From Acidobacteriota bacterium (GTDB taxonomy: Bacteria > Acidobacteriota > UBA6911), in assembly GCA_963664705.1 (NCBI GenBank), contig OY761556.1, positions 5,184,001 to 5,248,000 of the forward strand: a DNA stretch of 64,000 nucleotides, given 5' to 3'. Positions 51,690 through 53,876 of the stretch are shown here, in pieces. The notes beneath the pieces were generated by a model. The model did no database searches. It saw only the letters and a program-made list of their open reading frames with translations, and was not told where the DNA came from. Every line of letters begins with the position of its first letter. Position 1 is the first letter of the stretch. The position numbers and the translations under genes were made by a program.

Positions 51690-53339
51690 ATGGACTCCAC
51701 ACCCAGAATCAAAGCGCCTCGCGGCAACCAACTCCAATGCAAAGGATGGCAGCAGGAAGCTGCCATGCGGATGCTGATGAACAATCTGGACGAAGAGGTG
51801 GCAGAGCGTCCTCAGGACCTTGTAGTCTATGGTGGCAGCGGCAAAGCTGCGCGCAACTGGAGCTGTTACTCATCCATCATTCGCTCTTTGCAGCAGCTGG
51901 AAAATGATGAGACCCTTCTGGTCCAATCCGGCAAACCCGTCGGCATATTCCGGACACACGAGTATTCCCCGCGAGTGCTGATCGCCAACTCAAACCTGGT
52001 AGGCCGCTGGGCAGACTGGGAGGAGTTCCGCCGCCTGGAAGCCCTGGGGTTAATGATGTATGGGCAGATGACCGCAGGCAGCTGGATTTATATCGGCAGC
52101 CAGGGGATTGTGCAGGGGACCTATGAAACTTTCGCTGCAGCGGCTCGCCGTCACTTTGCAGGAACGCTGCAAGGCAGGATCCTGGTATCCGGCGGATTGG
52201 GCGGCATGGGAGGAGCTCAGCCCCTAGCGGCCACCATGGCCGGCGCTGCTTTTCTGGGCATAGAAGTGGATCCGGCCCGAATTCAGAAACGAATCCAAAC
52301 GGGATACTGCGACAGGATAAGCTTCAGTCTCGAAGAAGCGCTCGCACTTGTAGAACAGGCCGCCGCCGGAAAAAAGCCCCTCTCGGTGGGACTGGTTGGA
52401 AACTGCGCGGAAGTACTTCCCGAACTTGTGCGGCGCGGTTTTGTCCCGGACCTCCTGACCGATCAGACCAGTGCGCATGATCCACTTAACGGGTACATAC
52501 CCGCGGGGATCTCATTAACCGACGCGGAAGCCCTGCGACGCGATAATCCCGGCGAATACCTTCAACGCAGCATGGCATCCATCGCCACGCATGTACGTGC
52601 CATGCTGGAGCTGCAGGCAAAGGGAGCCATTACCTTCGACTATGGAAACAACCTTCGCGGGCAGGCTTTGAAAGCGGGCGTGGCAAACGCCCTTGATTTT
52701 CCCGGCTTTGTGCCGGCATATATTCGCCCGCTGTTTTGTGAAGGACGCGGTCCTTTTCGATGGGTCGCGCTCTCGGGCGATCCGGAGGATATTGCTCTTA
52801 CCGATGCGCTGGTTCTGGAGATGTTCTCAGAAAACGAAGAACTGTGCCGATGGATCCGGATGGCAAAGGCGAGGATTCGCTTTCAGGGTTTGCCCGCACG
52901 CATCTGCTGGCTGGGCTACGGCGAGCGGGCTGCCCTGGCTCTCCGGATGAATGATCTGGTTGCCGGCGGCAAACTGCATGCGCCCATCGTCATCGGTCGC
53001 GATCACCTGGATTGCGGTTCCGTGGCGTCGCCTTACCGTGAGACGGAAGGCATGAAGGATACGTCCGACGCGGTCGCCGACTGGCCGATCCTGAATGCAT
53101 TGTTAAACACAGCAAGCGGCGCATCCTGGGTTTCATTTCATCATGGCGGCGGAGTTGGAATGGGGTATTCTCTCCATGCAGGACAGGTCACTGTGGCCGA
53201 TGGCACAAACGCCATGCGGGACAGGATTGAACGGGTGATGACGAATGATCCCGGGATCGGTGTCGCTCGCCACGCGGATGCGGGGTATGAGGAGGCTCAG
53301 GAATTCGCCAGAATCCGAGGCATCAGAATTCCAGGCTGA
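51690..53339 (+). CDS. hutU: Urocanate hydratase
   Basis: [50 protein letters not shown]. Confidence 0.97.
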
Positions 53340-53357
53340 GAGCCCTCTCGCTTTATA

Positions 53358-53762
53358 GCACCGGACTTGCCCGGCTTTTGGGGAGATCTGAATATCCGGC
53401 AAAAATGTGGGCTAATTTGATCAAATCAGGTTCCATAAATAAATGGCGTGATTAGTTTTTATATTTGAACCGCGAAGACCTCGAAGACCGCAAAGATTTT
53501 TTGGCTCATTTTGCTGCTGGGCAATGAGCTAGTGTGATGGATAGGAAAGAAGTTGCTCATCATATCGTCGATTCAGCGGTGGCAATCCATACAGCGCCAG
53601 GATTGTTGGAGTCCGTTTATCAGCGGTGCTTAATGTGTGGAGCATCATGGATGGAATCCACCGTATGATCTGGCGAGAACGATAACCGTAAAACCTGCAA
53701 AATATTTTCTTTGCGGTCTTCGAGGTCTTCGCGGTTAATGGGGTTACTATTCGGTCAAGTCA
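53358..53762 (+). mobile_element. Putative non-autonomous GxxExxY-derived element
   Basis: Insert between the direct repeats; perfect 29-bp IR 53468-53496/53708-53736; homologous to the 9387-11129 units. Confidence 0.75.
53537..53685 (+). pseudogene. Internally deleted GxxExxY protein gene
   Basis: Manual translation MDRKEVAHHIVDSAVAIHTAPGLLESVYQRCL (GLLESVY = GxxExxY), joined out of frame to MDGIHRMIWRER* (family C-terminal DGIxR motif); central nuclease region absent. Confidence 0.88.
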
Positions 53763-53876
53763 GATGCGGGGTATGAGGAGGCTCAGGAATTCGCCGGAAT
53801 CCGAGGCATCAGAATTCCAGGCTGAGAGCCCTCTCGCTTTATATCAGCCAATTCAAACAGGACTCACGAAACTGAA

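Follow-up and report, generated by a model that had tools for sequence, protein, structure and literature searches.

What kind of event places a direct repeat of 81 bp around a short insert behind a gene? This question is raised by the 3' end of the urocanase gene hutU of an Acidobacteriota bacterium, situated in the window analyzed here (64,000 nucleotides, positions 5,184,001 to 5,248,000 of contig OY761556.1, assembly GCA_963664705.1; the genome of this window is referred to as G000). An earlier note on this DNA had regarded the repeat as a target duplication made at insertion and, on the premise that DDE transposases duplicate at most about 14 bp, had proposed that the insertion arose by another route. 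The features of the locus are compiled in Table 1.

Table 1. Features at the hutU locus (positions in the window; TIR, terminal inverted repeat; IR, inverted repeat)
Feature	Position	Strand	Remarks
hutU (urocanase)	51690-53339	+	intact, 549 aa; PF17391, PF01175 and PF17392 all over cut-off
Left copy of target duplication	53277-53360	+	core of 81 bp (ending at 53357) and three further bases next to the left TIR; sequence native to the host
Left TIR	53361-53373	+	11/13 identical to the TIR of the IS1634-family element of G000
Decayed MITE of the 117-bp type, IS1634-derived	53361-53430	+	left end and inner right end; 47-bp internal deletion compared to the G005 MITE (alignment)
Cassette IR, left arm	53468-53496	+	29-bp inverted repeat without mismatch, belongs to the GxxExxY hairpin cassette; lies inside the element and is not its terminus
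GxxExxY gene relic (PF13366/TIGR04256)	53537-53685	+	codons ~1-35 joined to 113-126; ~230 bp deleted; non-coding
Cassette IR, right arm	53708-53736	-	29-bp inverted repeat
IS1634-type right end	53741-53764	+	right TIR 53752-53764; last base departs from the IS consensus
Right copy of target duplication	53763-53846	+	orphan hutU tail, begins at the end of the right TIR
Double zinc-ribbon gene, 125 aa	53877-54254		between the element and purB

The duplicated hutU tail and its assembly support

The sequence at 53277-53357 recurs at 53763-53843 and differs in a single base, with A at 53310 and G at 53796 (80/81 identical). The repeat finder extends both copies to 84 nt (53277-53360 and 53763-53846; 82/84 identical), the second mismatch being located in the three added bases. 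In this longer version, the left copy ends flush with the left TIR of the element, and the right copy shares its first two bases with the right TIR, so that the length of the duplication is 79-84 bp according to the assignment of the junctions. Among 300 random intervals of 400 bp used as control, any flanking repeat was observed in three and an abutting one in none, which excludes chance as an explanation for the 81-bp repeat.

The 81-bp core of the left copy comprises the last 20 codons of hutU, its TGA stop codon, and 18 bp downstream. Due to the position of the left junction 21 bp beyond the stop codon, hutU is intact. The earlier statement that the host gene was left undamaged is thus correct, but the wording that the insertion regenerates the hutU 3' end is misleading, since hutU uses the left repeat copy and the right one is an orphan tail. 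Of 29 other genomes of the genus, five gave matches to the hutU 3' region, all with a single hutU tail and without the element, and in two of these congeners hutU is convergent with purB. At a DNA identity of about 75%, an empty allele at the nucleotide level was not obtained from any of the five. The double zinc-ribbon gene adjoins purB in G007 and G009; in G006 and G334, the interval from hutU to purB lacks it. A scan of 53200-54350 revealed neither promoters nor terminators.

Support by sequencing reads comes from contigs of the runs X1-X4, which belong to one sample, possibly the source sample, and thus do not support the assembly independently. In run X1, the 81-bp repeat forms a contig of depth 18.8 compared to 10-14 on the flanks, and both junction contigs (53328-53478 and 53722-53792) join this repeat contig with 0 differences. 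The right junction was found at flank depth in all four runs, and a contig for the left junction is listed in X1 only. The contig covering 53796 reads A in X2-X4, as in the left copy, and no contig bearing G is among those listed. The mismatch is therefore doubtful and possibly an error of the consensus; as assembly into contigs can merge repeat copies that differ in a single base, the absent G is no proof. An 81-bp repeat with one mismatch, as described before, is hence confirmed in the assembled sequence with the reservation that base 53796 is itself doubtful. To deduce a fairly recent event from this mismatch is unsafe, considering that the base is unseen in the contigs and that the insert is 88-92% identical to its closest siblings in G000. 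No joint skipping 486 bp was found among the listed contigs; graph simplification bars reading the repeat-to-downstream contigs of X2-X4 as an empty allele.

The doubtful base and the left-junction contig listed in one of four runs might be taken as signs that the whole duplication is an artefact of assembly. Both junctions and the double-depth 81-bp node in X1, the right junction in all four runs, and the recurrence of this footprint at many loci as well as in further genomes make this practically negligible. The misassembly envisaged in the earlier note was not seen as far as the contigs show.

A composite insert and its resident IS1634-family partner

The insert is 404 bp in length (53361-53764), lacks a transposase gene, and both opens and closes with the 13-bp TIR of the IS1634-family element of G000. 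It is a composite of a decayed MITE, a hairpin cassette with 29-bp inverted repeats that encloses a deleted GxxExxY gene, and a second IS right end. The gene relic scores below the cut-off of PF13366 (E-value 0.002; 18.9 bits vs. 22). It was aligned to its intact parent at G000 2163578-2163928, which reaches 134 bits and lies over the cut-off. The cassette folds very stably (z = -7.3), and its arms sit 107 and 26 bp inside the TIRs that abut the repeat.

Hairpin-forming intergenic repeats that occur in tandem arrays and are enriched between convergent genes are known from the REP/REPIN-RAYT systems. A REPIN-like GxxExxY element with the 29-bp inverted repeats as its ends was a candidate, which was dropped, since the true termini are the IS1634 TIRs outside the arms. 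The insert differs from REP/REPIN-RAYT in having the TIRs of a DDE-type IS, with target duplication, as its termini.

The partner element was found by a BLAST search of the insert against G000 as the last of 29 loci; it matches the last 26 bp of the insert alone, and the remaining 28 loci contain the cassette. It is located at G000:C1:6057793-6059434, has a length of 1,642 bp and a perfect 13-bp TIR, and is the only IS1634-family IS found in G000, present as a single copy. Its ORF of 490 aa has no internal stops and reaches 325.8 bits with the model NF033559 (cut-off 100). Members of this family are described in PMC2266710 as 1.5-2.0 kb in size, with termini beginning with C-----YT and a YREK motif that usually lacks the R. 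The partner IS agrees with this description in size, termini, and the motif Y394-x2-L-x3-E401-x6-K408. D170, D248, E401, and K408 are invariant in seven aligned relatives; D170, D248, and E401 are here assigned as the putative DDE triad, and E401 and K408 to a presumed Y-x-E-K motif. The right 21-26 bp of the insert match the right end of this IS, and its left end aligns with both the IS left end and the MITE of the congener G005.

The partner IS contains two internal 13-bp repeats, which are located at positions 90 and 1615. Loss of the DNA between them predicts a remnant of 117 bp, and a MITE of exactly this size occurs at three loci of G005. A closely related transposase was found neither in 300 other genomes of the phylum (E-value 1e-60) nor in five congeners. 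In the draft assembly of G005, the best matches show about 26-30% identity over most of the match.

The single G000 copy of the partner IS is not flanked by a direct repeat. Its flanks (L001:1279-1292 and 2935-2948) are weakly inverted instead of direct, with 89% identity in a 27-nt alignment that includes the TIR, and 13 bp to the left of it lies the end of an IS701-like element that is present in multiple copies.

The general statement that target duplications comprise 1-14 bp is found in bioRxiv 2024.06.02.596822, and the IS1634 family is an exception to it. As reported in PMC2266710, most family members produce repeats of 5-6 bp, whereas those of IS1549 and IS1634 are long and variable (8-514 bp). 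The premise of the earlier note does thus not hold for this family. Considering these reported lengths and the IS1634-type ends of the insert, no route other than transposition is needed at the level of the acting enzyme; the widely staggered nicks that had been suggested alongside may still be a step within IS1634-type transposition. We consider it probable (roughly 0.85) that the insert is a non-autonomous element with IS1634 ends and that the 81-84-bp repeat is the long target duplication of an IS1634/IS1549-type DDE transposase, likely that of the G000 copy acting in trans. The repeat is read as a footprint of this type due to the fact that repeats lie flush with the TIRs here as well as in autonomous relatives, in line with the original view of a target duplication made at insertion. 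The insert at hutU most likely adds a further case to a known oddity and does not represent a new insertion route.

Copies in G000 and relatives in other genomes

Outer direct repeats of 23-121 bp were observed at 13 of the 28 cassette loci, so that the flanking repeats of other copies, whose measurement had been proposed as a check, are indeed long and variable. The repeat sequences of different loci are unrelated, without a core common to all sites. Only a weak bias was found at the target sites, with A at position -1 in 14/23 and C at position -2 in 15/23 cases, the rows not being independent. Integrative elements classically leave a duplicated gene 3' end behind, and on this pattern the two copies at hutU could be attL and attR of a now decayed island that an integrase had inserted together with a substitute for the hutU 3' end. 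Such an origin is scarcely credible and already largely refuted by the diversity of the sites: 28 unrelated positions carry unrelated repeats of 23-121 bp, the ends are IS TIRs, and no integrase remnant was detected in the insert.

A right end is recognizable at 17 loci. The outer repeat begins within 3 nt of it at nine of these, and at three more (E14, E23, and E28) a duplicated spacer begins at the right end; the remaining five have no repeat. In case of the left TIR, abutment to the repeat was observed only at the hutU locus and E22, and for 14 of the 17 loci the motif search gave no left TIR. Later deletion accounts for at least some of the missing left ends, as in E14, where about 12 bp of the leading copy are left, compared to 88 bp in the internal and trailing copies. 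E6, E8, and E24 contain repeats without a recognizable right TIR. Tandem arrays of element plus spacer occur at 9 of the 28 cassette loci. These are the expected product of unequal recombination between long repeats, so that the repeats probably do recombine and the excision suggested in the earlier note gains indirect support. A nearly identical deletion of the GxxExxY ORF is common to six loci of G000; the nuclease-less form itself was therefore copied.

The strong hairpin could have caused slippage or template switching after insertion and thereby a duplication of adjacent DNA, independently of the inserting enzyme. The very stable fold of the cassette, the many different internal deletions among its copies, and the tandem arrays would agree with this. 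We nevertheless regard it as very improbable, since the start of the repeats coincides exactly with the right TIR at different loci and in different species, also in ISs where no such cassette was seen, and duplications by slippage are not expected to keep to the edge of a TIR.

According to a crude ORF set, 18 of the 28 cassette loci are situated between convergent genes, compared to 439 of 2467 intergenic gaps genome-wide. The count falls to 15 of 28 if three gaps of more than 400 bp are dropped, among them that of the hutU locus, where the 125-aa gene was missed. This enrichment could be due to targeting of terminator regions or to selection. A second subfamily of the cassette forms a tandem array of about seven 250-bp units at 9399-11097 of the window (G000:C1:5193399-5195097). 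At G000:C1:270616-270879 and 1666092-1666180, the left terminus is an inverted IS right end and not a left end. Cassette-free relics with the same IS ends were observed at G000:C1:2537442-2537631, 1230860-1231100, 6304351, 6273472, and 6283864, some of which are mixed with other palindromic repeats and local duplications.

The unabridged design is found in the congener G005, in which the 117-bp MITE is followed by the cassette and a second right end. Repeats of 36-51 bp lie flush with both TIRs in three of five assessable two-ended composites of this genome, a count that leaves out two duplicate loci. The composites L062, L064, L067, L070, and L072 of G005 contain the final 55-66 bp of the MITE twice, and several of them also duplicate about 90 bp of the cassette start.

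The exact right-end pattern of the composite matched only three metagenome loci, one with a 74-bp repeat, one without repeat or left TIR, and one cut by the contig end. The locus with the 74-bp repeat, a composite on an unrelated metagenome contig (L078), extends over 687 bp from TIR to TIR and carries an intact GxxExxY ORF of 126 aa. Its repeat is flush with the right TIR and seems to copy the stop region of a gene as well; on the left side, the repeat ends 36 bases before the TIR, and these bases are not duplicated.

Relatives of the partner transposase were taken from 21 of 22 loci in GTDB genomes, a fragment of 120 bp being left out. Eight of the 21 have both TIRs and long flanks; the others are truncated at the end of a contig or have termini that were not located. 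Abutting repeats of 81, 91, about 108, 222, and 294 bp were found at five of these eight autonomous relatives and none at the other three. A single IS occurs at two sites of one genome with repeats of 36 and 294 bp. More distant relatives on plasmids show repeats of 610, 164, and 24 bp. Repeats are absent at one further complete and three partial plasmid copies, and also at the one distant locus obtained by searching viral contigs. No record named IS1549 is among the 30 of 91 plasmid matches listed.

Mechanism and relation to known systems

Regarding the order of events, we presume that loss of the DNA between the two internal 13-bp repeats of the IS gave rise to the 117-bp MITE, which was then joined to the GxxExxY hairpin cassette and a second right end. 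Internally deleted versions would have spread in trans by means of the partner or a closely related transposase. Since the insert shares its ends with the IS, mobilization by the partner transposase is likewise presumed. At hutU, the two target strands would have been attacked about 82 bp apart with subsequent filling of the gaps; after insertion, recombination between the long repeats may have given rise to the tandem arrays, and deletions may have eroded many left ends. Nicks that are widely staggered or linked to replication are possible as steps of IS1634-type transposition. As another IS1634 transposase is reported in PMC4549789 to bind the beta-clamp, it is tempting to guess that insertion might be linked to the replication fork.

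In a one-ended variant of this mechanism, the right IS end would be joined precisely, variable copying or strand transfer would set the left boundary and thereby the repeat length, and nicking by the nuclease of the widespread GxxExxY cassette, captured repeatedly between IS ends, might assist. It would explain the long variable duplications together with the left ends missing at 14 of 17 loci, and is rather unlikely in our estimation; the elements of G005 and the autonomous relatives have two ends as a rule. If true, the family would offer a tractable handle on the long-duplication mechanism of IS1549 and IS1634. PMC2266710 (2008) proposes no mechanism and leaves the long duplications unexplained, and our literature search (outside subscription journals and ISfinder) gave neither a mechanism for IS1634-type long repeats nor a later explanation.

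Restriction-modification genes are reported in PMC2853133 to insert with a long target duplication, often over a gene 3' end. The insert resembles them, as far as that source describes them, by a nuclease-type gene between long variable direct repeats that often overlap the 3' end of a gene. By analogy, a GxxExxY nuclease (PD-(D/E)XK type) could have cut the target in trans and the cassette could have been inserted by break repair, with the IS1634 ends as passengers. Besides this published precedent of transposase-free insertion, the intact cognate gene in G000, the three repeat-bearing loci without a right TIR, and the duplication of the last MITE bases (55-66 bp) around the cassette in G005 would fit, as would a GxxExxY gene of another inverted-repeat type in G000 that has an 84-bp duplication and tandem duplications of its own without IS1634 ends. 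However, a third GxxExxY gene of G000 has inverted-repeat arms and no direct repeat, the repeat at hutU abuts the IS TIRs and not the 29-bp arms, and autonomous ISs with little beyond a transposase gene show the same footprint, so that we judge this alternative improbable. The restriction-modification inserts are also described as having no other mobile element, whereas at hutU the repeats are bordered by IS TIRs and most of the nuclease gene is lost.

The preferred reading, an IS1634-type transposase acting on a non-autonomous element, places the insert beside IS1549 of Mycobacterium smegmatis and IS1634 of Mycoplasma mycoides. The partner matches the IS1634-family model and shares with these the short TIRs, and the repeats are long and variable, ranging from 8 to 514 bp in IS1549/IS1634 compared to 23-294 bp in the clade of the insert and 610 bp in a more distant relative. 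The insert differs in being non-autonomous and carrying cargo, and the likeness refers to the family model and the reported repeats, not to the sequences of IS1549 and IS1634.

The insert shows the traits of MITEs and mobile insertion cassettes (MICs), namely two TIRs shared with an autonomous IS, lack of a transposase, and dispersed copies with site-specific duplications. As in those elements, the copies are many and mobilization in trans is presumed, and the full-length form has a MIC-like passenger gene. Two IS1634-linked MITEs of Methanosarcina are listed in Table 4 of PMC3852290, with 6-bp and no repeats, respectively. Compared to these entries, the insert stands out by repeats that are long and variable, a second right end nested within it, and the GxxExxY hairpin cassette. 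The accessible parts of PMC3281130, PMC3053259, and bioRxiv 2021.01.26.428298 contain nothing on long repeats or this cassette, and the same literature search found no description of the composite or of a GxxExxY cassette on IS ends. While the phenomenon is known for the IS1634 family, new is a family member with unusual cargo.

Long target duplications allow an element to land at gene ends without damage and provide substrates for excision and tandem amplification, which fits the 28 copies and nine arrays in G000. The locus offers a compact test system with a 490-aa transposase, 13-bp TIRs, and a natural 117-bp mini-element, and it is an instance of a GxxExxY nuclease cassette hitch-hiking on IS ends. 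At L003 (G000:C1:4472200-4473100), an unrelated GxxExxY gene that has a different short-repeat inverted repeat is followed by at least two internally deleted tandem self-copies; IS1634 ends were not seen at this locus. GxxExxY cassettes seem to be generally prone to amplification and deletion.
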